64,000 bases of DNA from Lentisphaeria bacterium (lineage in GTDB: Bacteria; Verrucomicrobiota; Lentisphaeria; Victivallales; UBA1829), in assembly GCA_017455665.1 (NCBI GenBank), contig JAFSZN010000050.1, positions 183-64,182 of the forward strand, read 5' to 3'. The notes under the pieces are model-generated. The model did no database searches. It saw only the letters and a list, made by a program, of their open reading frames with translations, and was not told where the DNA came from. This document shows positions 27,441-47,872 of this stretch, in pieces. Made by a program: the position numbers and the translations under genes. Positions within the stretch are counted from its first letter, which is position 1. The number at the start of each line of letters is the position of its first letter.

Positions 27441-27515
27441 CAGCGTCATCCTTTCCGATGGAAAGCCGCCCGCGTTTTCTGCGAAACCATCAACCCAACG
27501 AAAGGACAGACAGCC

Positions 27516-28316: not shown

Positions 28317-28320
28317 CCCG

Positions 28321-28980: not shown

Positions 28981-29136
28981 ATCCGGAGGCGGATCGGGGC
29001 ACAAAAAAGCACAAATGCAAACTGTTGCTTTTTTTTCTTAAAGTTTTTTGCTTTCCTGCTTGTATTTTCCTCTTCCGCGTGATATGTTGTTTGACGGAAT
29101 ACATTTCACCATGCCCCGAACGGAAAGGATTTCAAC

Positions 29137-30063
29137 ATGTTCTTCTTCGGCCCCAAAAAAGACAAATACTACGACATCGCGCAGAAACTTTTCACCTCCC
29201 TCGCCGGCGCCGCGCAGCCCGAGTGGAAAAACAGGATCCTCATCCAGCGCGACCTGATGAAACGGGCGAAACGCGCCAACGAGGACTCCGCGCTCGCGCT
29301 CTCCTTCAAGTCTCTGCCCGATGACGCACGCATCATGCCGAAGCATCCGCAAGTCCTGGAAGTCCCGTTCGCATCCGTCCGCCTGAGCAAAGACGGCAAG
29401 GAGTTTTTCGCGGACATCAGCGTCTCCCCGGACGGCGCGATCGGCTTGATCCAGTTCACGCAGCATTATTTGGCGGAAAACGGCTTCGACGTGCTCGGCG
29501 TGGACTTCTTCCCGAATCTTTTCAACGCGCCGAGTCTTGGTTTGCCGAAACAGGAAAAGCCGTTCCGCATCTCCGAAAAGCTTGTTTCGATCCTCGGCGC
29601 GGATTGGGACCGCGAGCTCCCGCCGGTGGAGATCGACGATTCGGAAGAAGATTACGGCAGGCAGACCTACGCGCCCGCCCTGCCGCCGGAGATACGGGAC
29701 GAATTCGCCCGTCTGATCCACACGAAACCCCCCGATGACTGGCAGGAATTCAGCAGGCATTTCTCCCATGCGTCCTATCACGGCGCCCTCGATGTTTACG
29801 GTTACTGCGATGAAATGCAGATCATCCCGCTGGCGCCCTGCGAAACCGCGTGGTATCTCGTGGCGCGCGTGCGGAATGAAATGTCCTCCACCTTCGAATC
29901 CTATATCCTGGCGTCCTCCGATCCGGCGATGCAGGACTCGCTGTATTTCCTGACGGAACACGACGGCGGAGAATCCGATCTGATCCCGATCGGGACCGAT
30001 CTCTTCGGATTCCTGCGCAAGGCGGATGACGAGGATTTCCTGGACTCGCTGAAGAAAAAGTAA
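29137..30063 (+). CDS. Hypothetical protein with SMI1/KNR4 (SUKH)-like C-terminal half
   Basis: 308 aa. The C-terminal ~130 aa (LPPEIRDEFARLI...WQEF...IIPLA...YFLTEHDGGE...IGTDLFGFL) resembles the SUKH immunity-protein pattern from memory; not verified. Confidence 0.55.
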   Translation: MFFFGPKKDKYYDIAQKLFTSLAGAAQPEWKNRILIQRDLMKRAKRANEDSALALSFKSLPDDARIMPKHPQVLEVPFASVRLSKDGKEFFADISVSPDGAIGLIQFTQHYLAENGFDVLGVDFFPNLFNAPSLGLPKQEKPFRISEKLVSILGADWDRELPPVEIDDSEEDYGRQTYAPALPPEIRDEFARLIHTKPPDDWQEFSRHFSHASYHGALDVYGYCDEMQIIPLAPCETAWYLVARVRNEMSSTFESYILASSDPAMQDSLYFLTEHDGGESDLIPIGTDLFGFLRKADDEDFLDSLKKK

Positions 30064-30070
30064 TTCTTCT

Positions 30071-30973
30071 GTGAATAAGAAATCCAAAATCTCCCGGACA
30101 CGATTCGAACAGGACGAAGAGCGTCTGTTCGATGATTTCTGTTCCTACGAATCGTTTGACAGGGCGAAACTGGAGGAAGAGATCGCCGCTTTTTCTGAGA
30201 TCGCCGAATCCTATCGAAACTACCTGGAGCAGCCTCGCAGGAACAAATCTCTTGCGGAGGATGTCCGGTATCGGCTCCGGGACAGTTACAGACTGCTCCG
30301 GCGTCTGTACGATGCGGCCGGAGAACCGGACAAGGCGTTTCAGGCTGCGGCGACCGCGTATCAGTTATTGCAGCAGCATGAAGAAACAAATCCTGATGAC
30401 ATGCCGCATTTTGACGAACGGGAAGAATACATTGATTATCTCCTCCGGCGGAAACGTTTTGAGCTCGTCCCCGATGTGCTCCGCACCATCACGCCGAGCG
30501 TGTTTATCTTTGAGGGATATGAGCGCGCGGAACAGTTTTACAACGACCTGATTGCCGTTGAGGAACTGATCCGGTCAGTGCCGGATAAACTTCAGGAATT
30601 CCGGTTCCTGCTCGGGAAGACCGTGCCGGACGAACTGTCGCAGGCGGAATACATGCTGTATCTGATGAGAAACGGCCTGTTTCAGTTCTTCCATGACGTC
30701 TTCGAATCCATGACGGATGAGGCGCTTGATGCGCTGCCGAAAAGCGGCGCGGCGTCCCTGCCTGAGATCGTGCGCGAATACGACCGCCGATACAGCGACC
30801 CGAACGATCCGGACGACGATTCTCCGTTTTATGCCCGGACGGACAAGATTCTGTCGGGATCATGCCCGGTCGCGGAGCTGGAGGAATGCCGCGCGGTCTG
30901 TGTGGCGCGGGACCTGAAATGGCGCATTCGCGATTTCGACAGGATGATAAAATCGAGGCAAAACCGCCACTGA
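30071..30973 (+). CDS. Hypothetical protein, DUF4375/DMP19-like motif
   Basis: GTG start; 300 aa. MRNGLFQFFHDVFESMTDEALDAL resembles the NGGFxQFF core of DUF4375. Weak call. Confidence 0.5.
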   Translation: MNKKSKISRTRFEQDEERLFDDFCSYESFDRAKLEEEIAAFSEIAESYRNYLEQPRRNKSLAEDVRYRLRDSYRLLRRLYDAAGEPDKAFQAAATAYQLLQQHEETNPDDMPHFDEREEYIDYLLRRKRFELVPDVLRTITPSVFIFEGYERAEQFYNDLIAVEELIRSVPDKLQEFRFLLGKTVPDELSQAEYMLYLMRNGLFQFFHDVFESMTDEALDALPKSGAASLPEIVREYDRRYSDPNDPDDDSPFYARTDKILSGSCPVAELEECRAVCVARDLKWRIRDFDRMIKSRQNRH

Positions 30974-30985
30974 AGATGCCGCCCC

Positions 30986-32032
30986 TCAGCGTTTGACGTA
31001 GGCGGTTTGTTTTCCGCGTCCGACCTTTTCGATCATGCCTTCCGTCAGAAGCTTTTTGAGAGTCTGTTCGATCATGGAAATACTGATGTCCGGGCATTCC
31101 AGCGCAATATCCGCCTTCGATATTTTCCCCAGCCGCCTGTCGAAAACCGTTCGGATCCTATCCTCTTTCGTTTGTTTCCCGTTGACGAGGTGCGCCACAC
31201 GCTCTTCGAACTCCCTGTAGGCTTTGATAACGGTGCCGAGCATGTAGCGCAGGAACGGGATGTAGTTGTTCCGGCAAGTGTTCCAGCCGTCGGAACTCTC
31301 CCGGAGGACTTCGTAATAGGTCAGTTTGGAATTTTCGATCAGCCTTTCCAAACTGATGTATTTCCCGACACTGTATCCATGCCGGTACAGCAGAAGCAGT
31401 GTCAGGAGTCTGCTCATGCGGCCGTTGCCGTCGTTGAACGGATGGATGCAAAGGAAATCGAAGACAAACAGCACGGAAAGCAGGAGCGGATCGTAGACTT
31501 CCTGCCGGACAGCCTCATTGTATGCTTTGCAAAGGCGTTCCACCGCTTCGGGCGTTTCGAATGCCGAGACCGGAGTGAAACGAACGCGCTTTTTGCCCGA
31601 CCGGTCGGTTTCCGCGATCACATTGTTGCTGTTTTTCCAGTGCCCGCCAGCCCCGGATGCCTGAAAGGAATAGAGATCCCGATGGAGCTGCAGGATCGTA
31701 TTCGGGGTAACGGGGATGTATTCATAGTTTTCGTGGATCGTGGCAAGGACGTCACGGTACCCTGCGATCTCTTTTTCATTGCGCGTGGCGGGTTCCGCTT
31801 TTTGAACGACAAGTTCCTTCAACCGTTTATCCGAGGTGAAGATGCCCTCAATGCGGTTGGATGCGTCCGTGCTTTGGATCACGGCGAGTTCCAGCAGCGA
31901 CTTCAGGATGTCTTTTTTTGCGCTTGAAAACTGAGCCTGCTTTCCACGGTATTCGTGAATCGCAGCGATCAGATTGCATAGTTCCGATGTCAGCAGGGTT
32001 TCAGGTAAAGCGGAATAATCGAACTGTCTCAC
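30986..32032 (-). CDS. Fic-family protein (class II, N-terminal inhibitory helix) with C-terminal wHTH
   Basis: Fic motif HPFNDGNGRMSR. Inhibitory motif S-N-R-I-E-G, i.e. (S/T)xxxE(G/N), upstream. C-terminal DNA-binding-like region ...LLTEGMIEKVGRGKQTAYVK. Confidence 0.9.
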   Translation of the reverse strand: MRQFDYSALPETLLTSELCNLIAAIHEYRGKQAQFSSAKKDILKSLLELAVIQSTDASNRIEGIFTSDKRLKELVVQKAEPATRNEKEIAGYRDVLATIHENYEYIPVTPNTILQLHRDLYSFQASGAGGHWKNSNNVIAETDRSGKKRVRFTPVSAFETPEAVERLCKAYNEAVRQEVYDPLLLSVLFVFDFLCIHPFNDGNGRMSRLLTLLLLYRHGYSVGKYISLERLIENSKLTYYEVLRESSDGWNTCRNNYIPFLRYMLGTVIKAYREFEERVAHLVNGKQTKEDRIRTVFDRRLGKISKADIALECPDISISMIEQTLKKLLTEGMIEKVGRGKQTAYVKR

Positions 32033-32497
32033 TGGCTTGCCTCCAAAAGATATATCGTTCTGCCTATACTATAATCCGGTTCTGCACAATTTTCAAGTCA
32101 GATTGTGCAGAAAGAGAAAAAAGATTGTGGGAATCCGCCGAGCAGAAACTGACCGAAGTACAACCCGGTTTCCAGGTGCGGACGCCGCGTCAGAAGAGCG
32201 TACGAACGTTCGCGTTCCGGCGTGTCGAAGTATTTGCTCAGGTCGATGTCCATTTTGAACTCAATGCGGCTGTTGTTATGTTTTCGGAAGATAAGTATAC
32301 CACATCTTTTACGAAAAGACAAGGGCAAATCCGCCCGAATCCGGAAAATAGTCCGAAAAAGGGCAGGGGGCAGAAAAACAAAACAGACTTACATAAAAAA
32401 ACAGCAATATCTCCTCGACAAAAAACTTGACATCCGCCCGAAATCTGCTATAGTAACTGTAAACGATCGATCCGCAACCGACACGGAGAAACATGCC

Positions 32498-34042
32498 ATG
32501 GACACGTCAGCATCGAGCCATAGCGGGAAATCCCCTGATTGGGGGGAGCTGCTGCATTGGTATCTGCTTGTTGTCCTTCTGCTGTTTTCACAACTGGTGA
32601 TCCTCACTCTTTTTGCGCTCTTCTGTATCCGGGCGACTGCAGGTCTATTCACCAAGTTTATCGAATTTGCATACGTGCGCCCCGTTGTGTGGCTCGTCCC
32701 GGTCTTATTTGGAGATGAGAATCATCTGGGGAACGTCCCGCTCGGCTTGGGAATGCTTCTCCTGGTCGTCATAATCTACGCCTTCCTCGGCGGCACGGTC
32801 GTCTATCTGATTCACAGACTTTCCCATGGAAAACGGATGCTGTCCTTTTTCTGTTGCGCGCTCGGTCTGCTCCTGTTCGCCGCCTGCGGCAAAAGCGAAC
32901 CCGAAGCGCCGGAATCTTCCGAAGGGAAAGCCGATTCCGTCGTTTTCACGCTGAAAGACGGCGTCGTGCTCGAAATGATCCGGGTTGAGCCCGGCACGTA
33001 CACGGTCGGACTGCCCCGGGCGGACCATCTGTGGCGGCCGGACATCGACCGGCGCGAGGTGACCGTGCCCGCGCCGTACTGGCTGGGCAAGTACGAGGTC
33101 ACGCAGGAACAATGGGAGGCCGTCATGAGCGGGGAGAAACGCCCCGAGGGGTTCGACCTGAGCAATCCGTCCTTGTACAAAGGGGAAAAGCGTCCTGTCG
33201 ACGCCGTGAACCGGAACGATGTGAACAGGTTCATCGAAAAACTGAACGCGCTCTGCGCTGACAAGCTCCCGGATGGATACCGGTTCGACCTGCCGGATCC
33301 GCTCCGGTGGGAGATCGCATGCCGCGCCGGGACGACCACGCGGATGCCGTGGGGCGACGATTCCAAACCGGAAGCTGCGAATCTGATCGCCATGGGGGAA
33401 TTGGAGAATAGCATCGACGACCTGAGTGAGGATGTTACATTCACGAATGCCGCGAAAACCCTCTTTTCCGCCGTAAAGGTGGGAATCGGTTCCAGAAACC
33501 GCCATGCATTCCGCAAGACGAGCGAAATCGGACAATACCCGCCGAACGCCTGGGGTTTCTGCGATATGATCGGGAATGTCGCGGAACTCTGCCGGGAGCG
33601 GCACACATATTCCGGCGGATACGGCGGACCGATGCAGAATGCGGCCGAAGTCACAGGCGAACTGCCGCCGGGAAATGATTATTACGAGCGGAAAACGGAC
33701 GAAACAGTCACGCATGGCGGCTCATGGTGGGATCCCGACTCGGTCATCAGCCCGGCAAACAGCTGCTGGCATCCGTATTACAACCACGCGCACCCGGAAC
33801 CTGTCTATGACAAAGTCACCGGGCATCATGTCGTGGGCTGGAAAGAATCCTGCATCGGGTTCCGTCTGGCGCTGGTGCCGGCCGGAACGACTGAAGTGGA
33901 AACGGTTAAAGGTGGAATGCCTGTTCATGCGGCAGGGCAGAGGACCAGAGAAAAGACGTTGGAACAGAACGCTGGATCGGGCGGCCGTGAGGTCTTTGGA
34001 TATCCTGTGAACGAAACGTCGCAAAACGGAGGTCAACAGTGA
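32498..34042 (+). CDS. FGE/SUMF1-domain (formylglycine-generating-enzyme fold) lipoprotein, in frame with an upstream 3-TM module
   Basis: Track ORF starts at 32222; a plausible ATG at 32498 has GGAG ~10 nt upstream. An internal ATG at 32837 gives the lipoprotein signal MLSFFCCALGLLLFAAC. FGE blocks YWLGKYEVTQEQWEAVM, NAWGFCDMIGNVAELC and HGGSWWD. Confidence 0.7.
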   Translation: MDTSASSHSGKSPDWGELLHWYLLVVLLLFSQLVILTLFALFCIRATAGLFTKFIEFAYVRPVVWLVPVLFGDENHLGNVPLGLGMLLLVVIIYAFLGGTVVYLIHRLSHGKRMLSFFCCALGLLLFAACGKSEPEAPESSEGKADSVVFTLKDGVVLEMIRVEPGTYTVGLPRADHLWRPDIDRREVTVPAPYWLGKYEVTQEQWEAVMSGEKRPEGFDLSNPSLYKGEKRPVDAVNRNDVNRFIEKLNALCADKLPDGYRFDLPDPLRWEIACRAGTTTRMPWGDDSKPEAANLIAMGELENSIDDLSEDVTFTNAAKTLFSAVKVGIGSRNRHAFRKTSEIGQYPPNAWGFCDMIGNVAELCRERHTYSGGYGGPMQNAAEVTGELPPGNDYYERKTDETVTHGGSWWDPDSVISPANSCWHPYYNHAHPEPVYDKVTGHHVVGWKESCIGFRLALVPAGTTEVETVKGGMPVHAAGQRTREKTLEQNAGSGGREVFGYPVNETSQNGGQQ

Positions 34043-34365
34043 ACGTGAATCCATCGAAAACGAACGGCAGAATCTTCCGGGAACTGTCGCGGTGGTGGTT
34101 CTGCTTCAGGTTCGTTCTGACGGTGCAGATCCTGTTCGTTTTCTGGCTGTTTTTTCTCGGCAATTTTATCAATCTGAACCGTATCGGTCAATTCCTGTAC
34201 GCAGGGGCGATTTCATGGCTCGGGAATCTGCTTTTCGATGACCCGTTCTGTGGCGATAACGTACTCGGTTTATTGATGTTTCTCCTGACGGTTATCCTCT
34301 ATTCCGTGATCGCCGGAACAGGATTATATCTGTTCCGCAGATACGTTTCACACGAAACGGAATGA
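34039..34365 (+). CDS. Small 3-TM membrane protein, paralogue of residues ~15-113 of the preceding ORF
   Basis: GTG start overlapping the upstream stop (GTGA), with GGAGG 6 nt upstream. LFDDPFCGDNVLGLLMFLLTVILYSVIAGTGLYLFRRYVSHE aligns with LFGDENHLGNVPLGLGMLLLVVIIYAFLGGTVVYLIHRLSHGK. Confidence 0.6.
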   Translation: MNVNPSKTNGRIFRELSRWWFCFRFVLTVQILFVFWLFFLGNFINLNRIGQFLYAGAISWLGNLLFDDPFCGDNVLGLLMFLLTVILYSVIAGTGLYLFRRYVSHETE

Positions 34366-34435
34366 CTGTGCCGCGCCGCATCATGTCATTCATCCGCAAA
34401 ACAGGGCAGGGGGAAACACATCCGGATGGAATATA

Positions 34436-35434
34436 TTACGGAAAGAATCCGCGCCATTCGCGCCATTTCGTTTCATTCATTTCCCATTCGCAGTACACCG
34501 CGATGCCGCGGATGTCCTCCCCCGGAGCCGCTGCCGAAATTCCCCTCAATGCCGAAATAATGTTTTCCACGCGCGGATGATGATACCCCACGCCGGCGTC
34601 CTCGTAGGCGGGGATCCCCAGCAGCAGATCGCATCCGGTCGAACGCAGGGACTCCGTCAGCTGAACCGTCCAGCGGGTCATCAGGCCGATGTAGCATTTT
34701 TCCAGCGGGATGGCGGTATCGTACATCATCACGGCCACCTGGTCGCAGCGGGCGGCGACGCTGCGCAGATACCCGGGACTCCAGTGAACATCCGGGAACC
34801 GATGCCATGCCGTCGGAGGCGGATACGCCGCCACGCTCAGTGTTTTGCGGGGGATCGCCGCGCGCAATTCATCCAGCAGCGTCAGAAAGTCCGTGTTCCC
34901 GTCCGGCATCGGCTCGATATTGACCTGAACGCCTGCGAGCCGGGGATGCGCGTTCAGAAGTTCCGATATGGAATCGACAAAACGCTTGCGCCACTCCCCG
35001 TCGGCAGGGCAGGCGGATTCGCCGAAGACGCCGCCCACCCACGGGATGACACGGATGCCGGACTGCCCGGCAAGATCGAGAAACCGTTCGGTCTGTTCAT
35101 GGTCGCAGCGCGCGATCGATCCGTCGGGCCGCGCCGGACACAGGTGCGGATAGACGATCGAAATCTTGTTGTCGGCAAGCCGACGGAAAAGCGCCGCGAT
35201 CTTCGATTCGCTGCGGAAGTCCGCACGATCAGCCTGTTTGCGCTCGAACCAGGCGTCGTCGCCGAGCCATCCGTGCCCGATCCAGATCGCGTTGTCGGAG
35301 TAATCGGGCAGGGGGGTGTCGCAGCCCGGATCCCAGAGCAGATAGCAGAGCGCCGCTCCGCCGAGGATCACGGTCAGGAGAAAGACGATCCGCAGCAGAC
35401 TTTTCCCGAACTTTTGGAACAGAACGTGTTTCAT
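34436..35434 (-). CDS. Membrane-anchored hypothetical protein, TIM-barrel glycosyl-hydrolase-like
   Basis: Track ORF is extended to 35533. The ATG at 35434 gives MKHVLFQKFGKSLLRIVFLLTVILGGAALCYLLW (anchor). The alternating beta/alpha pattern (IVYPHL, VIPWVGG, VQVNIEP, VAAYPP, VMMYDT) suggests a (beta/alpha)8 fold. Family not identified. Confidence 0.55.
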   Translation of the reverse strand: MKHVLFQKFGKSLLRIVFLLTVILGGAALCYLLWDPGCDTPLPDYSDNAIWIGHGWLGDDAWFERKQADRADFRSESKIAALFRRLADNKISIVYPHLCPARPDGSIARCDHEQTERFLDLAGQSGIRVIPWVGGVFGESACPADGEWRKRFVDSISELLNAHPRLAGVQVNIEPMPDGNTDFLTLLDELRAAIPRKTLSVAAYPPPTAWHRFPDVHWSPGYLRSVAARCDQVAVMMYDTAIPLEKCYIGLMTRWTVQLTESLRSTGCDLLLGIPAYEDAGVGYHHPRVENIISALRGISAAAPGEDIRGIAVYCEWEMNETKWREWRGFFP

Positions 35435-35756
35435 CGTTTGCTTGATTGTTTGCTTGACGGCATGATTTGCGAGGGAAACGGATGCTTCCTTGTGCTCGAA
35501 CAACTTGATGCGGCGGCAGATTGTCGAGCGCAACGAGTATTCCGAATTTTGAATACTATATCACGCTTTCTGCCGTTGTCAAGCCGGATTCAAGCCGGAT
35601 TCCGGAAAACAACATCTTGTCCTTTTGTCTCATTATGGACATATATATGTGTGTATCACCAATCAGGGCAGGGGGACACACACATGTATTATAAATCAGG
35701 ACAGGGGGCAAGTATAAAATAGTACGACAAATGATAATATACTCTTCGCCCCAATC

Positions 35757-35857
35757 TTTTGAAATGCGCGCCTCGCGGTAACGAAAAGAATAGACGCGTG
35801 CATCAGGCACGCTTACCTAGGCTTGCAAACAGCAAGCCCCCGGACGCAAAAGAATCC
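35757..35857 (+). repeat. DFR unit L1 (type A)
   Basis: GCGCGCCTCGCGGT box, hp1 GCGTGC-ATCAG-GCACGC and hp2 GGCTTGC-AAACA-GCAAGCC. hp3 is degraded (GGACGCAAAAGAATCC). A T-run and then GGGTAGGG at 35876 follow. Confidence 0.85.
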
Positions 35858-35931
35858 TTTCATTTTTTTTCTTTAGGGTAGGGGGCAAATACAGATTCGC
35901 CATCCTACTGTCAACCAATTATTTATAAATC

Positions 35932-36025
35932 TTTGCCGTTCGCGTCTCGCGGTCAAATAAAACTTATCAAGCTCAAGCGAGTATTCCGAGGCGAGCGGAT
36001 GCGAGCCCCCGGACGCATCGCGTCC
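35932..36025 (+). repeat. DFR unit L2 (type B)
   Basis: TTGCCGTTCGCGTCTCGCGGT box, a CAAGCGAGTATTCC segment, a degenerate hp2 and hp3 GGACGC-ATC-GCGTCC followed by TTATTCTTTTT. Confidence 0.85.
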
Positions 36026-36102
36026 TTATTCTTTTTGGATCAGGGCCGGGAGTAAAGTTTTATTTATCTGTTTCATTGATTCTTGTTCACATTCCCATTC
36101 CC

Positions 36103-36199
36103 TTGTTGTTCGCGTCTCGCGGTATCGTGAAAAAACATATCGAGCGCAGAGAATTTTCCGAGGCTTGCGAACAGCAAGCCCCCGGACGCGAACGCGTCC
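36103..36199 (+). repeat. DFR unit L3 (type B)
   Basis: TTGTTGTTCGCGTCTCGCGGT box, a TCGAGCGCAGAGAATTTTCC segment, hp2 GGCTTGC-GAACA-GCAAGCC and hp3 GGACGC-GAAC-GCGTCC. Confidence 0.85.
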
Positions 36200-36339
36200 A
36201 AAAAAGTCGAGCGTAGCGAGCATTCCGAGGCTCGCGAAAGCAAGCCCCTCGAACGCATCGCATCAAAACAAATAAAATCAGGGCAGGGGGGCAAGTATAA
36301 AATAGTACGACAAATGATAATATACTCTTCGCCCCAATC

Positions 36340-36440
36340 TTTTGAAATGCGCGCCTCGCGGTAACGAAAAGAATAGATGCGTGCATCAGGCACGCTTACC
36401 GAGGCTTGCGAACAACAAGCCCCCGGACGCGAACGCGTCC
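36340..36440 (+). repeat. DFR unit L4 (type A)
   Basis: Near-identical to L1 but with all three hairpins intact. Part of the 157-nt duplication 35692-35848 / 36274-36430. Confidence 0.9.
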
Positions 36441-36570
36441 AAATACATTTTTTCTTTCGGGCAGGGGTCAGATATGCTTTCCCATCTTCCTCCTCCTATA
36501 TTTGCCGTCGCGTCTCGCGGAAAATATATCGAAGGGCAGAGGAGAAATAATAATCTATTTTCCAGAATAT

Positions 36571-36666
36571 TTGAAATGCGCGCCTCGCGGTCAAATAAGA
36601 CATGTGTCGAGCACAGTGAGTATTCCTAGGCTTGCGAACAGCAAGCCCCCCGGACGCATCGCGTCC
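36571..36666 (+). repeat. DFR unit L6 (type B)
   Basis: GCGCGCCTCGCGGT box, a TCGAGCACAGTGAGTATTCC segment, hp2 GGCTTGC-GAACA-GCAAGCC and hp3 GGACGC-ATC-GCGTCC. Confidence 0.85.
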
Positions 36667-36917
36667 AAATCTATCATAACGTCAGCCACACAAAAAAACT
36701 CAATCTTTCTTCATTTCATCTTTTTGTTTGTGGCATGAAAAAACAACGGCTTCATATCCATAGAGCAGGGCGATGTTACGCTTTTTCCGTCACATGGACG
36801 CACTCAGAAAATCTCCTCTTCTTCCCAGGCGATTTAAGCGCATGATAACGACCGATACAGCTCTTCATCCGTCTCTGATTTATCCCCGTGTTAAATGGGC
36901 TTTGCGGCCCATTTATA

Positions 36918-36945
36918 ACGTCGCATAATATATATTATGTTAAAT
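36918..36945 (+). other. dif-like XerC/XerD chromosome-dimer resolution site
   Basis: ACGTCGCATAA-TATATA-TTATGTTAAAT versus E. coli dif GGTGCGCATAA-TGTATA-TTATGTTAAAT. The XerD arm matches 11/11, the inner 7 nt of the XerC arm are identical, and the spacer matches 5/6. Lies in an AT-rich ORF-poor gap. A 9-bp-stem hairpin (36892-36915, TAAATGGGC/GCCCATTTA) abuts it. Confidence 0.75.
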
Positions 36946-37665
36946 CGAGTACGCTCAAAAGGGCGAACCAAGACATTTATATTGTCCTATAGACAAATGG
37001 ATTGCGGCGTGTGTACAATCCGATTGTCAACAACTTTTTAACAACTTTTGACAATTGACATCATTTTGGACCACAGCCCTGGAAAAACGGTCATCGGTTC
37101 CAAAGCAGTTTCGAGACAACAAAAAATATTTCGTTAATGGGTCGAAGGAACTTGATAGATTTGTTTTCATCATCGTGATTCGGACCGCCCATGTGTTGCC
37201 GAACGGGAAAGAACTTTTTTCGTCGAACATTCTGAATTTGGTCCATTTTTCACGGGCAGGGCATGGCAAAAGCCGTTTTTACCCCCTCGCCTGAGGTCAT
37301 TTTTTTTAGAAGGTGAGAACGATGAAAATTTTTGGGGTCTTTGGGGAGGTTGTCACGAGTTCGGTCTTGTTCGATTTTTTGATGTTTTGGATATAATATT
37401 CTCTGAAAACATGCCAATCTTTTCAAAACATCTTGTGTGTCCAAATGGGGGGGCGTTTACTTTCGGAATAGGGGCTGAGGAGAATTTGCGTCTGATGTTT
37501 TGAGCTCACTTTACTCCCCTACCCTATTGAAAAAGAGACATGTAGATACAAAATATGCCTTTTATCTTCTGCCAGGAAGAAGGAATAAATCAATAGTTTC
37601 TTTTCTTGTGTTTCTGTTTCATAATCCAATGCAGAATGATTACTTGTATTTCGAACAATCTTTTT

Positions 37666-37765
37666 GGACGCATTTGCGTCCGGGGGGCTTGCATTCGCAA
37701 GCCTCGGTAAGCGTGCCTGATGCACGCATCTTTTTTTTATTAACGCGAGACGCGCGAATCAAAAG
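37666..37765 (-). repeat. DFR unit R1 (type A, inverted)
   Basis: Reading the + strand: GGACGC-ATTT-GCGTCC, then GGCTTGC-ATTC-GCAAGCC, then GCGTGC-CTGAT-GCACGC, then ATCTTTTTTTTATT, then AACGCGAGACGCGCG. Confidence 0.9.
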
Positions 37766-37928
37766 GGTGGAGATATTCTTAGGTCGTATACTGTTTGATG
37801 ACGTTATACTTCTTTTCTTGTTACCGCGAGACGCGCAATGCTGAGTAGCGGGAAGAAACAGTGCGTTCATACAGAGCAGACAGCGAATCCATAATCCTAT
37901 GCCCCCTGCCCTAAATTTGACCAAATCA

Positions 37929-38027
37929 GGACGCATTCGCGTCCGGGGGGCTTGCATTCGCAAGCCTCGGTAAGCGTGCCTGATGCACGCATCTTATTTT
38001 CCCATTACCGCGAGACGCGAACGGCAA
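37929..38027 (-). repeat. DFR unit R3 (type A, inverted)
   Basis: Same three hairpins, followed by TACCGCGAGACGCGAACGGCAA, the exact reverse complement of the L2 box TTGCCGTTCGCGTCTCGCGGT. Confidence 0.9.
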
Positions 38028-38532
38028 TTTAAAAGTTAAACATTTCTTCTCACAAGATACAACAATGCAATGAAGGATTACAGGTGACCGCGAGACGCGA
38101 TAAACAAAGTCCTTTTGTGAACTCCCCGGAGACGAGAAATAATAGAAAAGGTTCAGGTTACCGCGAGACGCGCAAGTCAAATTATTCTTTAAAAGTAAGA
38201 TGTGTTTTTTGACAGACCATACAACTGACTTATCCGTTTTTGTTTCGTCTTTCGCCTTCATTAATCTTCAGTACAAAATAGCCTGACAAAGAAAGATCGA
38301 ACGGGGATTCATCCTATGTCTTTCAAGACCTCTTTGAATGATTCCGTGCGAACGGGTGACGGGTCCAGTTCACGTCGTCACCGGGGCGGGGAATCGGGGC
38401 ACAATGAATATTATTATCGTTTTTTGAACTCAAAATACCCCGCCGCCCCTGTCGTATATCGGATTTTTCCGCAAAAAAACAGATCGACTCTTGTTTTTTT
38501 GATTAAGATGGGGTATAATAATTATAAATCTC

Positions 38533-39246
38533 ATGTCTTGTCGCCTCGACTGGAGGATGCCGTCCGTGTACAAAACCGTTTTTTACAATGAAGACGATAA
38601 TATCCGTCTGACCAGGTATTGGTCATCCAAAGACGGGAAACTGATCCTGGATATCCACTCCGTCGGCGCGGAAGAGTATCCCGGACCGAAAGGCAATATC
38701 CAGTTCGATGCCGGGGTATGGTTCGCATACAACGTCTTCGACCGGGACGGACGCATCAAAGTGTCCTATGAGGCGGATGAACCGGACGACCGTTATCCCG
38801 ATGCGTACTGGAGTGTCAATGTGACTTATTTTTACGGCTTTACGGACGAAACGGTCCTGAAAAGCTGTTTCCGGATCCTCATGGACCGGGATTTCCGGAT
38901 CACGAAACGGACCATGGAAGACCTCGAGCTGCGCGATCTGGACGGTCTCCATGTCTTTTACGGGAAACGCCCGAAGTTCCTGCAGCGATACCGGGACGGG
39001 AAAAAGACCGGCGCCAACAGGTATTGTGACGACAAGCGGCTGCAGCAGTTCATCGAAATCGACCATGCCGATTACGCCGGACCGATCGACGTCTCCAGCC
39101 GCGGCTGCCGCAGGATCGAATGCGACGATGCGTTCAAATCGAAGCTTCTCAAATTCGACCGGCTGGTCTTTTATATCAAAAAGGTTTTTCTTGATCCGAC
39201 CTCCAAGTATTATCAAACGCCCCCTGCCCCGGAGAACGGAAAATGA
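38533..39246 (+). CDS. Hypothetical protein, possibly YwqK/MORN-like repeats
   Basis: 237 aa; an alternative start exists at 38557. Gly/Tyr-punctuated beta-hairpin-like repeats (FYGKRPKFLQRYRDGKKTGANRYCDDKRLQQFIEI). Ends with the tail YYQTPPAPENGK shared with the two downstream paralogues. Confidence 0.5.
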   Translation: MSCRLDWRMPSVYKTVFYNEDDNIRLTRYWSSKDGKLILDIHSVGAEEYPGPKGNIQFDAGVWFAYNVFDRDGRIKVSYEADEPDDRYPDAYWSVNVTYFYGFTDETVLKSCFRILMDRDFRITKRTMEDLELRDLDGLHVFYGKRPKFLQRYRDGKKTGANRYCDDKRLQQFIEIDHADYAGPIDVSSRGCRRIECDDAFKSKLLKFDRLVFYIKKVFLDPTSKYYQTPPAPENGK

Positions 39247-39431
39247 TGTTGGGGATACAGGGCACCTCTAAAAATTGGTTTCCGACGGCTTTTCGCGTCC
39301 GGTTTGCTCCTCCCTGACCTGACCAATCAGCATCAAAAAATATGTTTTTTCGCTTGCATTCCTGGGCGAGACGGTGTATAATAAATCAATAATAAAAATC
39401 CAGTTCCGTTCAAACAAATCAGAATATTCTC

Positions 39432-40820
39432 ATGCCGGACAGTCGCACCACGCACAACATAATCTTTTCGAGCATTGGCGTCTTCCTGATCGCCGCAGTC
39501 GTTTTGATCCTGCTGGCAATCCCCCGGGACGATCTTTCACTCGGCAGGATATCGAGGCTTCCCGTGATCCGCCTCTTCATTTCTCCGAATCCCGAACGGG
39601 CCGAAAGATTGTATCTTGCAGGACTCGACCTTGTCGAATACGACAAACAACAGGCGATCGAGTACATCCGGATGGCGGCGGAACTCGGCAATGTGCCGGC
39701 TCAATCCGCGCTCGGGTCTTTCTATTTCAACGGAGACGGCGTCGAACAGGATGCCGCCGAAGCCGTGAAATGGTTCCGCAAGGCGGCGGATCAGGGATTC
39801 CCCGAGGCGCAATCCAACCTCGGAATCAGTTACATAAAAGGCAGGGGCGTCGAACAGGACACCGCCGAGGCCGTGAAATGGTTCCGCAAGGCGGCGGACC
39901 TGGGATTTTCTCCCGCGCAGAACAATCTGGGGCTGTACTGTCTTGAAAACGGCCGGGAGGCAGAGGGGGTCGAACTGTTCCGCAAGGCGGCGGAATACGG
40001 ACTTGCCTCGGCGATGCATAACCTCGCGTTTTGTTATGGCGAAGGCCGCGGCGTCGAAAAGGATCCTGCAGAGGAACGGAAATGGTACCGCAAAGCCGCG
40101 GAACAGGGATACGTCAATTCTCAGTTCAACCTTGGCACGCTCTATTATTCCGAAAAGGGTGACGAGAACCTGAAAGAAGCGGCGAAATGGTACCACATGA
40201 CGGCGGATCAGGGGCTCGCGCAAGGGGAACTCATGCTTGGAGCATTCTATCTGAACGGCATGGGCGTCGAACAGGATATGGCGGAGGCGGTCAAATGGTT
40301 CCGCCTGGCGGCGGATCAGGGTGAAGAGTATGCGGAATACTCGCTCGGCGAGTGTTACAAGAACGGTTACGGCGTCCCACAGGATATGGCGGAGGCGGCG
40401 AAATGGTACCGCTTGGCGTCGGATCAGGGGCTTTCCTACGCTCAATGCGCGCTCGCGTTCTGTTATCGGAACGGGACCGGCGTGCCGAAGGATCCCGCCG
40501 TGGCGGACAAGCTTATCAACGAAGCCATGCCGAAACTGCGCGCGGCCGCGGAACAGGGCGACGCCGAGGCGCAGATGTGGATGGGGAGATGCTACGAAGA
40601 CGGATTCGGAGCGGAAAAGGACGAGCCGAAAGCCATCGAATGGTATCGCAAAGCCGCGGAACAGGACCATGCGGATGCCCAATATTCGCTCGCGCTGATC
40701 CTCAAACGGAACGGAGACGCGGACGAAGCGGAGACGCTGCTTCGCAAGGCTGCCGAATTCGGACATCCGGAAGCGAAAAAACTCCTCGATGTACCCGGTC
40801 AAACAGACCGGAAGCCATAG
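39432..40820 (+). CDS. Membrane-anchored Sel1 (SLR/TPR-like) repeat protein
   Basis: N-terminal TM IIFSSIGVFLIAAVVLILLAI, then about ten 36-aa repeats of the form AEAVKWFRKAADQG...AQ.NLG..Y..G.GV.QD. Confidence 0.85.
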   Translation: MPDSRTTHNIIFSSIGVFLIAAVVLILLAIPRDDLSLGRISRLPVIRLFISPNPERAERLYLAGLDLVEYDKQQAIEYIRMAAELGNVPAQSALGSFYFNGDGVEQDAAEAVKWFRKAADQGFPEAQSNLGISYIKGRGVEQDTAEAVKWFRKAADLGFSPAQNNLGLYCLENGREAEGVELFRKAAEYGLASAMHNLAFCYGEGRGVEKDPAEERKWYRKAAEQGYVNSQFNLGTLYYSEKGDENLKEAAKWYHMTADQGLAQGELMLGAFYLNGMGVEQDMAEAVKWFRLAADQGEEYAEYSLGECYKNGYGVPQDMAEAAKWYRLASDQGLSYAQCALAFCYRNGTGVPKDPAVADKLINEAMPKLRAAAEQGDAEAQMWMGRCYEDGFGAEKDEPKAIEWYRKAAEQDHADAQYSLALILKRNGDADEAETLLRKAAEFGHPEAKKLLDVPGQTDRKP

Positions 40821-40831
40821 GGACAGACAAG

Positions 40832-41524
40832 ATGGAATTATCATCCGGGCGAACGAATGAGATCCTGGGGCCGTGGCGGATCGGCTGGCTGGTCCTTGCC
40901 GCCGCGCTGGCTTCGGCGTACCTGGGGCCTTCGGTCGCGCCGATCGCCGGATATGTGGATTCGTGTGTTTTGGTGCTTTTCCTGTTCTGCGGAGCGGCAT
41001 TCATCGTCCTGTCGGTCTTCACGTTTGTCTGTTACATCCTCGTCGCTCCGTTTCCGGCGTTCTTCCGCCGGGACATCATTCCGTCGTGTTTCCGCCGCAA
41101 CAAAGACGGCACGCCGAAGGTCGCCAGGACGGTTTCCGTTTCGGAGGAATGCCTTTCAAAGATGGAAGACTCTTACGGCCGCGGGGTCGCATTCGATCAG
41201 ATCGTCGTTTATCCCGTTCTGATCTTCCTGTTTGTTCATTATATCTTGACGCGCGGATATGAGGATTATATGAACTGGCGCGATCCGAACGATTACGGGT
41301 TCTACTGGTATCCGGTGTTGTTCGCCGTCCTCTCGATCCCGTGGCATCTGCTCTATGCGTGGCGGAGCGGACGGCATTGTCCGTACTGCCTGACGCCGCG
41401 CACGAAAGACAACTTCGACCTCGAGCATCACGTCTGCATGCGGTGCCATACCCACTTCGTCGCGGGAAACGAAACCGAAACACCAAACGAAACGTCCCCG
41501 GCCCCGGAGGAGAACGGGAAATGA
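40832..41524 (+). CDS. Polytopic membrane protein with C-terminal CPxC...CxxC zinc ribbon (paralogue 1)
   Basis: Track ORF 40352.. is over-extended; the ATG at 40832 gives 230 aa with about 4 TM helices. C-terminus IPWHLLYAWRSGRHCPYCLTPRTKDNFDLEHHVCMRCHTHF and tail SPAPEENGK. Confidence 0.7.
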   Translation: MELSSGRTNEILGPWRIGWLVLAAALASAYLGPSVAPIAGYVDSCVLVLFLFCGAAFIVLSVFTFVCYILVAPFPAFFRRDIIPSCFRRNKDGTPKVARTVSVSEECLSKMEDSYGRGVAFDQIVVYPVLIFLFVHYILTRGYEDYMNWRDPNDYGFYWYPVLFAVLSIPWHLLYAWRSGRHCPYCLTPRTKDNFDLEHHVCMRCHTHFVAGNETETPNETSPAPEENGK

Positions 41525-42213
41525 GAATCAAAGCCCATCATTTATCCATCCAAAGGCTCTTTTTTATCGTGGGACCGTGGCGGATCGCGTCGCTCGCGTT
41601 TGCCGCATTCGGATTTCTTTCTCCGGATGCATTTTATGGGATCGCCGTCCCTCTCGTTATTGCCGTATTCGGTTTCAGCTGCGTGATCCTGTTCGGACTG
41701 ATCATCTTCGTGCCCGCCGAACTGATCGCGGATCTGACCAACGGCAGACGGGGCAGATGTTTCCACGCGGACTTGCGCGAATTGACCGGAAAGAAGAAAC
41801 AGGACCGCCAGCCGATGATCTTCAGGACGTATCCCGTGCCGGAAAGCTGGCTGGCGAAGATGGAAAATCTTACCAGTCACTGGGAAGGATTCCTCCAGAC
41901 TTTTGTTTTCCCCGCGATGATCGTCGGGTTGATTGCGAACTGCATGCACGGCTATGACAGATGGTTCGACTTCCATTATCCGATGCTGCCCTACGGATAC
42001 TTTACCTTCGAGGCGGCGTTCATTGCACTCGGAATCCCGTGGCATCTGCTCTATGCGTGGCGGAGCGGACGGCATTGTCCGTACTGCCTGACGCCGCGCA
42101 CGATCGACAACTTCGACCTCGAGCATCACGTCTGCATGCGGTGCCATACCCGGTTCATCGCGGAAAACGAAAACAAACTTGAGCCGCCCCCTGCCCCGGC
42201 GGACAAAGCATAA
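41521..42213 (+). CDS. Polytopic membrane protein with C-terminal zinc ribbon (paralogue 2)
   Basis: ATGA overlap with paralogue 1. Also exactly 230 aa with the same C-terminal block (…PRTIDNF…CHTRF) and tail PPPAPADKA. The N-terminal two-thirds are strongly diverged. Confidence 0.7.
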   Translation: MRIKAHHLSIQRLFFIVGPWRIASLAFAAFGFLSPDAFYGIAVPLVIAVFGFSCVILFGLIIFVPAELIADLTNGRRGRCFHADLRELTGKKKQDRQPMIFRTYPVPESWLAKMENLTSHWEGFLQTFVFPAMIVGLIANCMHGYDRWFDFHYPMLPYGYFTFEAAFIALGIPWHLLYAWRSGRHCPYCLTPRTIDNFDLEHHVCMRCHTRFIAENENKLEPPPAPADKA

Positions 42214-42337
42214 GAAAAAGCGCCCTGCCCGAAGCCGCCTTCCATATTGAGGAAAACTGCTCCGGACAGGACGCCCGGTCATGGCGGGATCCCGGATCGA
42301 ACGGGACACCCGTTCCATGATCTGAGATCGAGGGGAC

Positions 42338-42724
42338 TTACAGCGTATTCAGCCCGAGGTCACCACCTCCTCTGCTCTGATGTGACAGACGGCGGAGCGC
42401 CTTCTTCGCGGTCCGTCTTCTGTGGCGGAGAGGCCTGCCGAGCCGGACGGGCAGCAGATACCGCCGCGCGGTGCGATCCGCCACGTGAAGTCTCTGCGCG
42501 ATGACGGTGGGGTTGCCCACCCTCTCGTAGTAGAACATCTTGTAGGCGGCCCAGCGTTTCGGCTCCCGGCTTGCCCAGTCCGCCAGCAGGATCATCCGCC
42601 GCAGCGTTTCGGTTCCCGGCATGTCATTCTTTTTCCACGAGGCGGTGTCGTATTCCGCCTCGCGCAGGATCTGGTCCATACCGATGCCATGATCTGAACC
42701 GATCTCTTCGTTGTATTCACTCAT
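42338..42724 (-). CDS. Small HTH protein, sigma-70 region-4-like (putative transcription regulator)
   Basis: 128 aa. YKMFYYERVGNPTVIAQRLHVADRTARRYL resembles a region-4/LuxR-type HTH, with a basic C-terminal tail. Family not identified. Confidence 0.45.
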   Translation of the reverse strand: MSEYNEEIGSDHGIGMDQILREAEYDTASWKKNDMPGTETLRRMILLADWASREPKRWAAYKMFYYERVGNPTVIAQRLHVADRTARRYLLPVRLGRPLRHRRRTAKKALRRLSHQSRGGGDLGLNTL

Positions 42725-42978
42725 GATAACGTCCGCATCTTTCTTCCGTTTACGTTTTTATGGATGGGGTACATGTTCAATAAGGTGGATGTGTCTGGGG
42801 ATTCTGTCGTACAATTGTACGACACATCGGGCGGCGAGCGGTTCATGCGCGGTCCTTTCTTTTCGAGATTTGAAGTGTATGATTCGATGCCGGATCCGGG
42901 CGCCTGAATCCGTTTGCGGAGGCATCCTCCCGAATCCGGGAAAATATAGTACGTATCCCAGCCAAAGTCAAGCTCAAA

Positions 42979-43019
42979 TTGAAACTTTTCTGAAACTTTA
43001 TTGAAACTAGTTTCAATAA
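42979..43019. promoter_or_regulatory. Phased TGAAAC hexamer array ending in a 10-bp inverted repeat
   Basis: TGAAAC at 42980, 42991 and 43002 (11-bp phasing), plus an inverted GTTTCA at 43010. TTATTGAAAC-TA-GTTTCAATAA is a perfect palindrome (42998-43019). Lies between the divergent HTH gene and yjbQ. Confidence 0.4.
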
Positions 43020-43180
43020 AACATCTCACAAATCTGATCGTCAAAAAGAAAGAATCAAGGATCAGCCCTGCCCTGTCCGGCACAAAAACCGCTTCACGCG
43101 CTTGCAAACAGGGATCGCGCGCAGTATATTATTTGTCGGAAACGAATCAAACAAGCATCCATCGAAAGGAACCATCCATC

Positions 43181-43582
43181 ATGGCAGAATTCTTCGTCAA
43201 GACCAGCCGTCACTGCGAGATCATCGACATCACCGAGGACGTCAACCGCGTGCTGCCGCAGTCCATGGCGTGCGGCATGTGCCACATCTACTGCCCCCAC
43301 ACGACCGCCGGGATCACGATCAACGAGAACGCCGACCCGGACGTGAAGCACGACGTGCTGCAGAAACTCTCCTCGCTCATCCCGCACGACGAGGCGTATT
43401 ACCAGCACTGCGAGGGCAACAGCGACGCGCATCTGAAGGCGATCCTGACCGGATTCTGCCAGACCGTGCCGTTCCGCAACGGACGTCTTGAGCTCGGCAC
43501 CTGGCAGGGCATCTATTTCTGCGAGTACGACGGACCGCGTACGCGCCGTGTGAAAGTCTACTTCGAACCTGCACAGGATTGA
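43181..43582 (+). CDS. yjbQ: YjbQ/UPF0047-family protein (secondary thiamine-phosphate synthase-like)
   Basis: Track ORF is over-extended; the ATG at 43181 gives 133 aa. HTTAGITINENADPDV and EGNSDAHLKA are typical of the family. Confidence 0.85.
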   Translation: MAEFFVKTSRHCEIIDITEDVNRVLPQSMACGMCHIYCPHTTAGITINENADPDVKHDVLQKLSSLIPHDEAYYQHCEGNSDAHLKAILTGFCQTVPFRNGRLELGTWQGIYFCEYDGPRTRRVKVYFEPAQD

Positions 43583-43619
43583 CCCCTCCCCTGCCCTGCT
43601 TCTTCCTCAAAAAGAATCT

Positions 43620-43662
43620 CCCCTGCCCCGGAATCATATTCGAGGCAGGGGTTCGTTTTTTT
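43620..43662 (+). terminator. Rho-independent terminator
   Basis: CCCCTGCC/GGCAGGGG stem with a 16-nt loop, followed by TTCGTTTTTTT. Confidence 0.6.
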
Positions 43663-46599: not shown

Positions 46600-47802
46600 A
46601 TGAAACCGACTACCCTCCCGCCCGATCTTCTCCGCTCCAAACACTGGGAATGGCATATCCCGTCCGAAAAGACCGCCGAAACAGTCCGCGGTCTGGTCCT
46701 GTCCGCACAGCATCTGGTAAAAAGCACCCCGGTCCGCGCGGTGTACCACTGTGAGGATTACTTCCTCAAATTCGAACTCGCGACCAATCTGATGACATCG
46801 TTCAGAAACCGTCTGCATCCGAAGGCTGGCGCGGAGTACGAGATCGGACAGAGCCTGGCGGCGGCGGGGATCCCCGCCGTGGAATGCATCGGCTGGGGCA
46901 AGCTCGGCGGCACGAACGTGCTGATCACACGCGCCAAGCCCGGATTTATCACGATGGACGAGTATTTCTACACGCGGGTCGTCTACGGCGGAGAGAGTTT
47001 CGACGGCGTTCTTCCGGAGATCACATCATTCCTGCGGAAGTTCTTCGACGCCGGCTTTTATCACGGCGACATGCATTTCGGCAATATCCTGTACAATTCC
47101 GAAAAGCACGAACTTGCATGGGTGGACCTGATTGCGATCAGCCATATGGGTAAAGTCGAGCCTGCCGCACGCAGATTCATGTGCCGGTGCATTGTCTCGC
47201 TCCGCGAGGGGCTCTCCCGCACGCAGCTGCTGCATGCCATCCGCGAGCTCGGCGCGGCCGAGACGGACACCGAGGCGGAAACGTTCTATTTCTCGGAGAT
47301 CATGCGCACGGCACGCCACCTTGTCGAAACCTGGGAAAAGCGCAGCGGCCAGGCATTGGGCGGCTATTCGAAATTCGCCGATGCCATCCCCTGCCCCGGC
47401 GCGCCCGGCAGGACAATGCTTCTGCGGAAAGACTGGCTCGGACGCCCCCTCATCACGAAGGATGCCGCCGCGCACGGATTGCCGGCCGGCCATGAACTTT
47501 TCCGTGCGAAGGATGAAGCCGAAGCGGAAACACTTTATCTGCGGAGCATCTATCTGCAGACTCTGCGGATCAAACATCGCCGCATTGTCGCGTTCGCACG
47601 TCCTGACGAGCTTTGGCTTGAGCCGCTTCCGGCAGGACTTGAGGCTGTTCCCTCCGCTCCGGACGATGCCGACACGGCATTCTTCCGGCGCACGCTGGAG
47701 GAACAGATGATCGAGGCGCCCGCGGACGCCATCCGGCGCCTGCCGGACGGGTCGTTCTACCTGACCGGCCTGACGCGCCTCAAGACAGGCTTCGAGGCGT
47801 GA
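46600..47802 (+). CDS. Lipopolysaccharide (Kdo/WaaP)-kinase-family protein kinase-like protein
   Basis: 400 aa. YFLKFE (Lys), catalytic-loop-like FYHGDMHFGNILY and WVDL. Confidence 0.65.
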   Translation: MKPTTLPPDLLRSKHWEWHIPSEKTAETVRGLVLSAQHLVKSTPVRAVYHCEDYFLKFELATNLMTSFRNRLHPKAGAEYEIGQSLAAAGIPAVECIGWGKLGGTNVLITRAKPGFITMDEYFYTRVVYGGESFDGVLPEITSFLRKFFDAGFYHGDMHFGNILYNSEKHELAWVDLIAISHMGKVEPAARRFMCRCIVSLREGLSRTQLLHAIRELGAAETDTEAETFYFSEIMRTARHLVETWEKRSGQALGGYSKFADAIPCPGAPGRTMLLRKDWLGRPLITKDAAAHGLPAGHELFRAKDEAEAETLYLRSIYLQTLRIKHRRIVAFARPDELWLEPLPAGLEAVPSAPDDADTAFFRRTLEEQMIEAPADAIRRLPDGSFYLTGLTRLKTGFEA

Positions 47803-47872
47803 TCGCGCATCCTTTTTCACCAGACTTTATCCGAAACGGGTTCCATTCCACAAACGTTCAGAAAGACCCCCT

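Follow-up and report, generated by a model that had tools for sequence, protein, structure and literature searches.

The octamer GGGNAGGG switches strand at a single dif site in a 64,000-nucleotide stretch of contig JAFSZN010000050.1 (the window), and is probably the FtsK-orienting polar sequence (KOPS) of the lineage to which this DNA belongs. The host is an uncultured member of the Lentisphaeria, within the Planctomycetes–Verrucomicrobia–Chlamydiae (PVC) superphylum. Its nearest named relatives are metagenome-assembled genomes (MAGs) from rumen and gut, and the window spans the chromosome-dimer resolution region. Judged from the sequence, a DNA-pump steering code known from Proteobacteria is probably also at work in this distant phylum. 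An earlier note on the same DNA, made by eye, had read the octamer as a KOPS of the Escherichia coli type; the identical octamer, its degenerate fourth position, its over-representation, its polarity toward dif and its top rank among the words compared bear this reading out. The counts reported here demonstrate the identity of the motif, its over-representation, polarity, inversion at dif, recurrence and specificity, and a gradient in its density.

An exhaustive scan of both strands of the window returned 27 copies of GGGNAGGG, against 8.3 ± 2.8 in 100 dinucleotide shuffles, none of which reached 27. Between 32 and 44 kb there were 17 copies where analytic Markov-1 to Markov-3 models expect 1.3–1.6, and the non-coding gap at 35534–38532 held seven where such models expect 0.2–0.5. 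All but one of these 17 copies are aimed at the single dif site at 36914–36941: those on the + strand start at 32361, 34404, 35306, 35666, 35876, 36281, 36459 and 37254, those on the − strand at 37517, 37904, 39222, 42189, 42223, 43066, 43584, 43589 and 43621. The tally made by eye over this interval agrees with the exhaustive count apart from two starts placed one base low (34403 and 35305 for 34404 and 35306). Its list was otherwise complete, CCCTNCCC is indeed absent left of dif within 32–44 kb, and 37254 is the sole + copy to the right of dif in that interval.

The polarity persists beyond the range that had been read by eye, with + copies at 14434, 21506 and 23763 and − copies at 47389 and 54685. 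From 14434 to 36459, 10 of 10 copies lie on the + strand, and from 37517 to 54685, 11 of 11 lie on the − strand; the copy at 37254 (+) is the only wrongly oriented one between 14.4 and 54.7 kb. Strong polarity thus reaches about 22 kb leftward and about 18 kb rightward from dif. Over the whole window, 23 copies point toward dif (hereafter permissive) and four away from it (non-permissive).

The dif site consists of two 11-bp arms around a 6-bp central region and fits the dif consensus. By comparison with the E. coli dif, with which 23 of its 28 bases are identical, we take the left arm to be of the XerC type and the right arm to be of the XerD type. It is single in the window, where no second site was found at up to three mismatches. 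Degenerate dif remnants in the gap, considered as traces of integrated mobile elements, were likewise not found at up to three mismatches. The site lies in an AT-richer gap free of open reading frames (ORFs), with a GC content of 0.45 within 1 kb on either side versus 0.61 in the rest of the window; the ORF-free stretch measures about 2.9 kb in the window and about 1–1.4 kb in close relatives. In the window and in related clusters of loci, the polarity switch of GGGNAGGG coincides with this single site. A 24-nt core of the site is identical in at least 120 GTDB genomes, mostly Gammaproteobacteria among the matches listed, and among these matches GGGNAGGG also converges on the core. Dif sites have been predicted in three Verrucomicrobia (Kono et al., PMC3025954). 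The same 24-nt core also occurs exactly in 13 IMG/VR viral contigs of 6–19 kb (L006–L018), which are possibly dif-integrating elements of other hosts.

To place the window among its relatives, related loci were collected by k-mers shared with it or by the full 28-nt dif, with a reach of up to 14 kb per side, and GTDB genomes were scanned with the 24-nt core (at least 120 loci). The window and 61 related loci were grouped by shared 16-mers, dif excluded, so that the 62 sequences fell into 38 clusters. The 37 clusters without the window share no alignable flank with it and are counted as independent. In these, 167 copies of GGGNAGGG point toward dif and 19 away, with toward exceeding away in 35 clusters and the reverse in one. 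The 5′–3′ orientation toward dif on both sides, first described from the window by eye, therefore inverts at dif both there and in 35 of 37 independent clusters. Five named PVC loci among the matches listed carry 34 copies toward dif and five away, and 56 metagenome contigs with an identical 28-nt PVC-type dif carry 162 + and 11 − copies on the left and 15 + and 105 − copies on the right. As a positive control, the known proteobacterial convergence was recovered from the 120 matches listed (80 + and 14 − on the left, 13 + and 105 − on the right).

Among the related loci, that of the uncultured bacterium RUG10770 (L078) is about 87% identical to the window over genes. Others belong to Lentisphaeria MAGs from sheep rumen (L074) and yak cecum (L045, matched by the 24-nt core only), a Victivallales MAG (L136), a Verrucomicrobia MAG (L092) and a further MAG (L058). 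In L074, positions 4949–7981 are homologous to window positions 26057–28997; this block lies inverted 3.8–6.8 kb to the right of dif, versus 8–11 kb to the left in the window. An inversion symmetric about dif in this way keeps the strand polarity relative to dif.

Every octamer, together with octamer families containing one internal N, was ranked by strand skew relative to dif, following the analysis of architecture imparting sequences (AIMS), on the 64-kb window and on fragments around dif that reach at most 14 kb to each side. Singled out by eye in the earlier note, GGGNAGGG also came out on top in this comparison with all other octamers: in the representatives of the 37 clusters, with the innermost 1 kb on each side of dif set aside (154 kb of sequence), it was the first of 43,610 words (96:0, p = 2.5e-29). 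In the five named relatives only the overlapping AGGGNAGG (22:0) ranked above it among about 15,000 words. A substitution scan located the specificity within the octamer. Counted as toward/away, GGGCAGGG gave 73/1, and the skew was kept by all four bases at position 4 (A, GGGAAGGG, 9/0; G, GGGGAGGG, 25/2; T, GGGTAGGG, 8/0). Nearly every substitution at another position lost both abundance and skew, as in CGGCAGGG (11/11), GGGCCGGG (6/7) and GGGCATGG (12/11), save for a weak skew in GAGCAGGG (19/5). The octamer is preferentially flanked by A on its 5′ side (59%) and by G on its 3′ side (64%).

The density of permissive copies rises toward dif. Per kilobase, it is 0.12 at 16–40 kb from dif (beyond 16 kb from the window alone), 0.28 at 8–16 kb, 0.42 at 4–8 kb, 0.63 at 2–4 kb, 1.1 at 1–2 kb and 1.8 at 0.5–1 kb, and then 0.6 at 0.25–0.5 kb and 0.9 within 0.25 kb. 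Within 2 kb of dif it amounts to about 1–2 copies per kb, which is 5–10 times that of gammaproteobacterial controls: at 114 mostly gammaproteobacterial dif loci among the matches listed, densities were 0.07–0.35 copies per kb, with no peak near dif.

Several simple explanations were set against these counts. Gene context was taken from a crude gene model and from the gene calls of a 99.8%-identical metagenome contig (L001). Gene-strand bias was rejected as a cause: to the right of dif the genes lie mostly on the + strand and the motif on the − strand, and about half of the copies, 14 of the 27, are intergenic. The five left-hand copies of GGGCAGGG outside the gap comprise three that are sense in + strand genes, one antisense in a − strand gene and one intergenic, a mixed placement which shows that their direction does not depend on the strand of the genes. 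GC skew, at +0.012 left of dif and −0.012 right of it, is too small to be the cause, and its cumulative profile lacks a clear inflection. Base composition does not account for the motif either, since among the 56 permutations of six G, one C and one A, GGGCAGGG is the commonest and the most skewed (18:2). Amplification of repeats alone is ruled out by the substitution scan and by the clusters that have no alignable flank in common with the window.

The identical octamer is the KOPS of E. coli, Vibrio cholerae and Pseudomonas aeruginosa, where it is read by the FtsK gamma domain and where its inversion at dif is a hallmark (PMC3384302, PMC13342612). KOPS loads the FtsK hexamer in one orientation, after which the motor moves toward dif (PMC3384302) and stops at XerCD-dif (PMC2800217). 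By analogy, the winged-helix gamma domain of FtsK would read the octamer in this lineage as it does in E. coli. The hexameric motor would load in one orientation, pump DNA toward dif, halt at XerCD-dif and activate dimer resolution there. The accumulation of copies near dif may then form a zone in which loading is highly probable and correctly oriented for the final approach to dif. The ftsK gene is conserved throughout the PVC superphylum, and a gamma domain is present in the FtsK of Verrucomicrobium spinosum (PMC12283558). The literature searched, which covers Proteobacteria and the diverged motifs of Firmicutes, yielded no KOPS analysis for PVC bacteria.

The motif described here shares with the KOPS of the three proteobacteria (also called FtsK recognition sequence, FRS) the octamer itself, the free fourth position and the preference for C there. 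As in E. coli-type systems, it is over-represented, directed toward dif on both arms, inverted at dif and independent of gene strand. It differs in its host, a member of the PVC superphylum (Lentisphaeria) rather than of the Proteobacteria, in its density (about 1–2 per kb within 2 kb of dif, versus about one per 12 kb in E. coli; PMC3384302, Table 1), in the many copies that sit in dif-specific repeat modules, and in conserved non-permissive copies at 0.25–0.8 kb from dif. The SpoIIIE recognition sequence (SRS) of Bacillus subtilis (GAGAAGGG) and the Lactococcus lactis KOPS (GAAGAAG) follow a like logic, each being a short, polar, G/A-rich guide of an FtsK-family translocase (PMC3384302). KOPS specificity has drifted together with the gamma domain, from GGGNAGGG in Proteobacteria to GAGAAGGG in Bacillus and GAAGAAG in Lactococcus (PMC3384302); the motifs of B. 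subtilis and L. lactis have diverged in co-evolution with the gamma domains that read them, whereas the present lineage keeps the proteobacterial motif unchanged, and GAGCAGGG is only weakly skewed (19/5). Like the AIMS of Hendrickson and Lawrence, GGGNAGGG is a skewed octamer that becomes increasingly abundant toward the terminus; AIMS, however, were defined on whole replicons, and the present ranking covers the 64-kb window and fragments around dif (at most 14 kb to a side). The proteobacterial KOPS code is known; its probable presence in a PVC lineage would be new, and the local architecture is unusual.

The exception at 37254 lies on the XerD side of dif. The earlier note had left open whether this was a tolerated non-permissive copy or a sign that the true switch point lies between 37261 and 37517. 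The first of these stands: an equivalent single + copy recurs on the XerD-arm side, at +365 to +772 of dif, in 8 of the 38 clusters, usually just dif-proximal of a TGAGCTCA palindrome and a permissive CCCCCCTRCCCTAT, and the window shows the same arrangement at 37501–37530. The displaced switch point is ruled out by the single dif at 36914–36941 and by this recurrence in eight clusters. In relatives, the innermost permissive copies lie at −96 and +177 nt from dif, which puts the switch of polarity at dif itself. The element TTGAGCTCAAA-N5-7-CCCCCCTRCCCTAT, the counterpart of window positions 37501–37530, is conserved in relatives.

All non-permissive copies of the pooled relatives lie less than 1 kb from dif. 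Victivallales-like clusters carry theirs 226–400 nt to the left of dif, often paired 50 nt apart, and these XerC-side pairs mirror the XerD-side exception of the window's own group. Pairs on the XerC side were seen in L136 and L181 (−304 and −254), L166 (−276 and −226) and L171 (−575 and −341).

Several observations weigh against the octamer being the KOPS of this lineage. We infer FtsK as its reader by analogy because none of ftsK, xerC and xerD was found in the window or in the fetched loci. A tblastn search with an E. coli FtsK gamma-domain query gave no match in the window or in 198 fetched loci, and neither XerC nor XerD was seen among the window proteins scanned. Past 60.7 kb, more than 24 kb to the right of dif, the copies are of mixed orientation, and the mixed pattern also occurs in related contigs (L195–L198) reaching about 7 kb past the end of the window; the polar zone may therefore be local, about 20 kb on each side of dif. 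In the pooled data, 20 of the 23 copies pointing away lie within 1 kb of dif, and some of them are conserved, which fits poorly with a pure loading-site model. Some copies in the gap are not independent, as they belong to duplicated modules (family D2). Finally, most of the metagenome contigs carry no taxonomic label, and three clusters are tied to named PVC genomes. With regard to the mixed zone itself, no mobile-element genes were seen in it beyond 60.7 kb, and the contigs that match window positions 56015–64000 at 95–98% identity do not explain it, their pattern being mixed and mostly GGGGAGGG as well.

Part of this evidence would also suit a rival in which the octamer is real and selected but is read by a protein other than FtsK, such as a terminus-organising factor, a polar replication-fork barrier or a protein binding the repeat modules, its identity with the E. 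coli KOPS being coincidental. No FtsK gamma domain was found in the fetched DNA, polarity was shown only to about 20 kb from dif, conserved non-permissive copies lie near dif, and the near-dif accumulation and the hairpin modules have no counterpart at the E. coli dif. The specificity of the octamer, however, is exactly that of KOPS (GGG-N-AGGG, in which the fourth base is free and nearly every other change abolishes the skew), and Gammaproteobacteria with the identical dif core have the identical converging motif among the matches listed. Added to this are the conservation of ftsK across the PVC superphylum (PMC12283558) and the full polarity of genic copies up to 14 kb from dif in relatives (96:0), which suits a translocase guide over a local barrier. 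We consider a reader other than FtsK improbable.

The octamer could also be a functionless by-product, if G-rich words favour the leading strand and tandem duplication multiplied a chance copy on each side of dif. Five to seven of the copies do lie in repeat modules, two of which are 90% identical duplicates (D2). Module copy number differs between near-identical strains, and other permutations of six G, one C and one A are mildly directed toward dif (151:60 when summed, with overlapping shifts of the motif counted in). Yet copies in unique sequence, genic and intergenic, are equally polar, nearly all one-base variants lack skew, and a GC-rich motif is 14–35 times over-represented in an AT-rich gap; the GC skew is about 0.01, and the octamer ranks first of 43,610 words in 37 clusters with no alignable flank to the window. 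The word ranking and the substitution scan largely refute this origin, which we regard as very unlikely.

To our knowledge, the octamer resembles no described Chi site, and its sequence equals KOPS. Chi sites, too, are polar, over-represented and biased to the leading strand (discussed in PMC3384302) and the window alone cannot separate the two classes, but a Chi-like recombination hotspot read by RecBCD or AddAB is hardly credible given the density peak less than 2 kb from dif and the absolute skew (96:0 beyond 1 kb), for which Nolivos et al. give a KOPS value of 1 in the dif region of E. coli (PMC3384302).

The setting of GGGNAGGG at this dif is unusual. Short blocks on both sides of dif keep fixed distances in 7–9 otherwise unalignable clusters; those at −105, −50 and +89 are listed in Table 1, and relatives carry a further block, GGGCACAGACC, at about +135. 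In most related clusters a KOPS follows GCGATTTAA at −96, where the window's own cluster has GCGCATGA. The blocks at −105, −50, +89 and +135 make up an "extended dif" of about 250 nt, which may contain sites for accessory factors or a promoter. The plasmid Xer sites cer and psi are alike in having conserved non-coding sequence at a fixed distance beside a XerC/XerD core; here, in contrast, such blocks flank a chromosomal dif on its left and on its right. At its own chromosomal dif, E. coli is not known to require accessory sequences.

Farther out, dif is flanked by two arrays of repeat modules in mirror orientation, and analysis of the repeats in both arrays upholds the earlier statement that KOPS copies are built into dif-flanking repeat units. 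A module of 170–240 nt contains one KOPS, then a CGCGYCTCGCG hairpin 50–100 nt downstream, followed in order by GCGTGC..GCACGC, GCTTGC..GCAAGC and GGACGC..GCGTCC hairpins. Module elements are confined to about 1.3 kb around dif, and the polar hairpin is aimed at dif in 22 of 23 cases. Modules were found in several related clusters, not in all. The right array differs from the 99.8%-identical contig L001 by a 100-nt indel at 37993/37994, which means that the arrays vary in length between strains. Genome-wide elements of the REP (repetitive extragenic palindrome) type were discarded as an identity for the modules, which within the window occur only at 35.7–38.2 kb. Known RNA families and phage-borne elements were also rejected, as the modules had no match in Rfam, even at E ≤ 1, or in viral contigs.

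Some further features of the gap were recorded. A GCGTGCCTGATGCACGC hairpin followed by a T-run, found in the arrays, is terminator-like and on either side points away from dif. The gap is also enriched in promoter-like sites (16 versus 5.3 ± 2.2 in shuffles). At 37322–37396 (+), 0.4 kb to the right of dif, lies a 24-codon ORF (MKIFGVFGEVVTSSVLFDFLMFWI) with an AGGTGA Shine–Dalgarno sequence 6 nt upstream; its product is hydrophobic and resembles a small membrane peptide, and conservation was not visible in the alignment of relatives.

Tentatively, dif might be the centre of a dedicated non-coding cassette of 1–3 kb that acts as a landing and stopping platform for FtsK, and whose hairpin and palindrome elements bind a second terminus protein. 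Such a cassette would comprise the fixed-distance blocks, the non-permissive KOPS and the TGAGCTCA palindrome on the XerD side, and the expandable mirror modules, each with one KOPS and three or four short GC hairpins in polar orientation (22:1). The second protein could be, for example, a polar fork trap or a terminus organiser. If true, such a platform would represent a new kind of architecture that links termination and translocation to dimer resolution.

The proteobacterial octamer as the top polar word of a PVC lineage would mean that the code linking the gamma domain and KOPS is either older and more broadly conserved than the Firmicute examples suggest, or arose repeatedly. The octamer may also serve as a practical marker for placing and orienting terminus contigs in MAGs of uncultured gut and rumen bacteria. 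Dense KOPS modules and "wrong-way" copies offer a natural system for studying the role of non-permissive KOPS and the proximity to dif at which FtsK loading matters. The architecture as a whole, with its accumulation of KOPS, fixed-distance blocks and conserved non-permissive copies, may merit study in its own right.

Table 1. Features around the dif site of the window; signed distances are in nucleotides relative to dif.
Feature	Position	Strand	Details
dif site ACGTCGCATAATATATATTATGTTAAAT	36914..36941	+	ACGTCGCATAA-TATATA-TTATGTTAAAT, 28 bp
Conserved block left of dif	36829..36900	+	GCGATTTAAG at −105; CCCCGTGTtAAAtGGGC / CCCCGTGTCAAAAGGGC at −50
Conserved block right of dif	37023..37047	+	ATTGTCAACAACTTTTTAACAACTT / ATTGTCAATAACTTTTCAACAACTT at +89, equal distance in 7 clusters
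Five permissive GGGCAGGG outside the repeat gap	14434, 21506, 23763, 32361, 34404 (span 14434..34411)	+	left of dif
Permissive GGGCAGGG	35306..35313	+	antisense within GH18-like gene 34436–35533 (−)
Left array of dif-flanking modules	35663..36670	+	exact KOPS at 35666, 35876, 36281, 36459; families D1–D10
Degenerate KOPS in left array	35692; 36033	+	GGACAGGG (35692); GGGCCGGG (36033)
Non-permissive GGGCAGGG	37254..37261	+	points away from dif, XerD side, ~320 nt from dif centre
Palindrome TGAGCTCA, then innermost right permissive copy	37501..37530	−	CCCTACCC at 37517–37524, inside CTCCCCTACCCTAT
Right array, mirror orientation	37654..38200	−	KOPS at 37904; inverted pairs I1–I23, families D5, D7, D8
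CGCGAGACGCG hairpins of right array	37824, 38008, 38088, 38161		
Permissive copy	39222..39229	−	antisense, 3′ end of gene 38533–39246 (+), encodes ..PPAPENGK*
Two permissive copies	42189..42230	−	42189 encodes ..PPPAPADKA* tail of gene 41521–42213 (+); 42223 just past its stop
Permissive copy	43066..43073	−	intergenic
Three permissive copies (43584, 43589, 43621)	43584..43628	−	just past stop of YjbQ-like gene 43181–43582
Two distal permissive copies (47389, 54685)	47389..54692	−	each antisense within a + strand gene
Mixed-orientation zone	60745..63778	60745+, 61962−, 62097+, 63420+, 63771−	4 of 5 copies are GGGGAGGG

To the right of dif, genes 38533–39246, 40832–41524 and 41521–42213 encode small proteins with the C-terminal tails ..PPAPENGK, ..SPAPEENGK and ..PPPAPADKA, for which no Pfam match was found; the products of the latter two are 230-aa paralogues. 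The earlier note had placed three copies of the octamer in gene 3′ ends, where they were said to encode a shared PPAP tail. Three neighbouring genes with similar tails are indeed present, but only in two of them (39222 and 42189) does the complement of the exact octamer encode the tail. After the YjbQ-like gene, a terminator-like hairpin at 43620–43662 uses the permissive CCCTGCCC (the copy at 43621) as its 5′ arm. Its 3′ arm, GAGGCAGGGG, lacks a single base to be a non-permissive GGGNAGGG, which looks as though the wrongly oriented octamer were avoided.

Walking outward from the left end of the window, no record was found for its two leftmost genes. Toward the right end, contigs L195–L198 are 95–98% identical to window positions 56015–64000 (nrdD, a trxB-like gene, thiF, xdhC and others) and have other genes to the left of nrdD, which marks a synteny break between close relatives at about 56015. 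L195–L197 carry a barnase/barstar pair past the end of the window. A thiamine pyrophosphate (TPP) riboswitch (RF00059, 57.5 bits) lies at 27339–27453 (+), upstream of a gene starting at 27458 or 27363.

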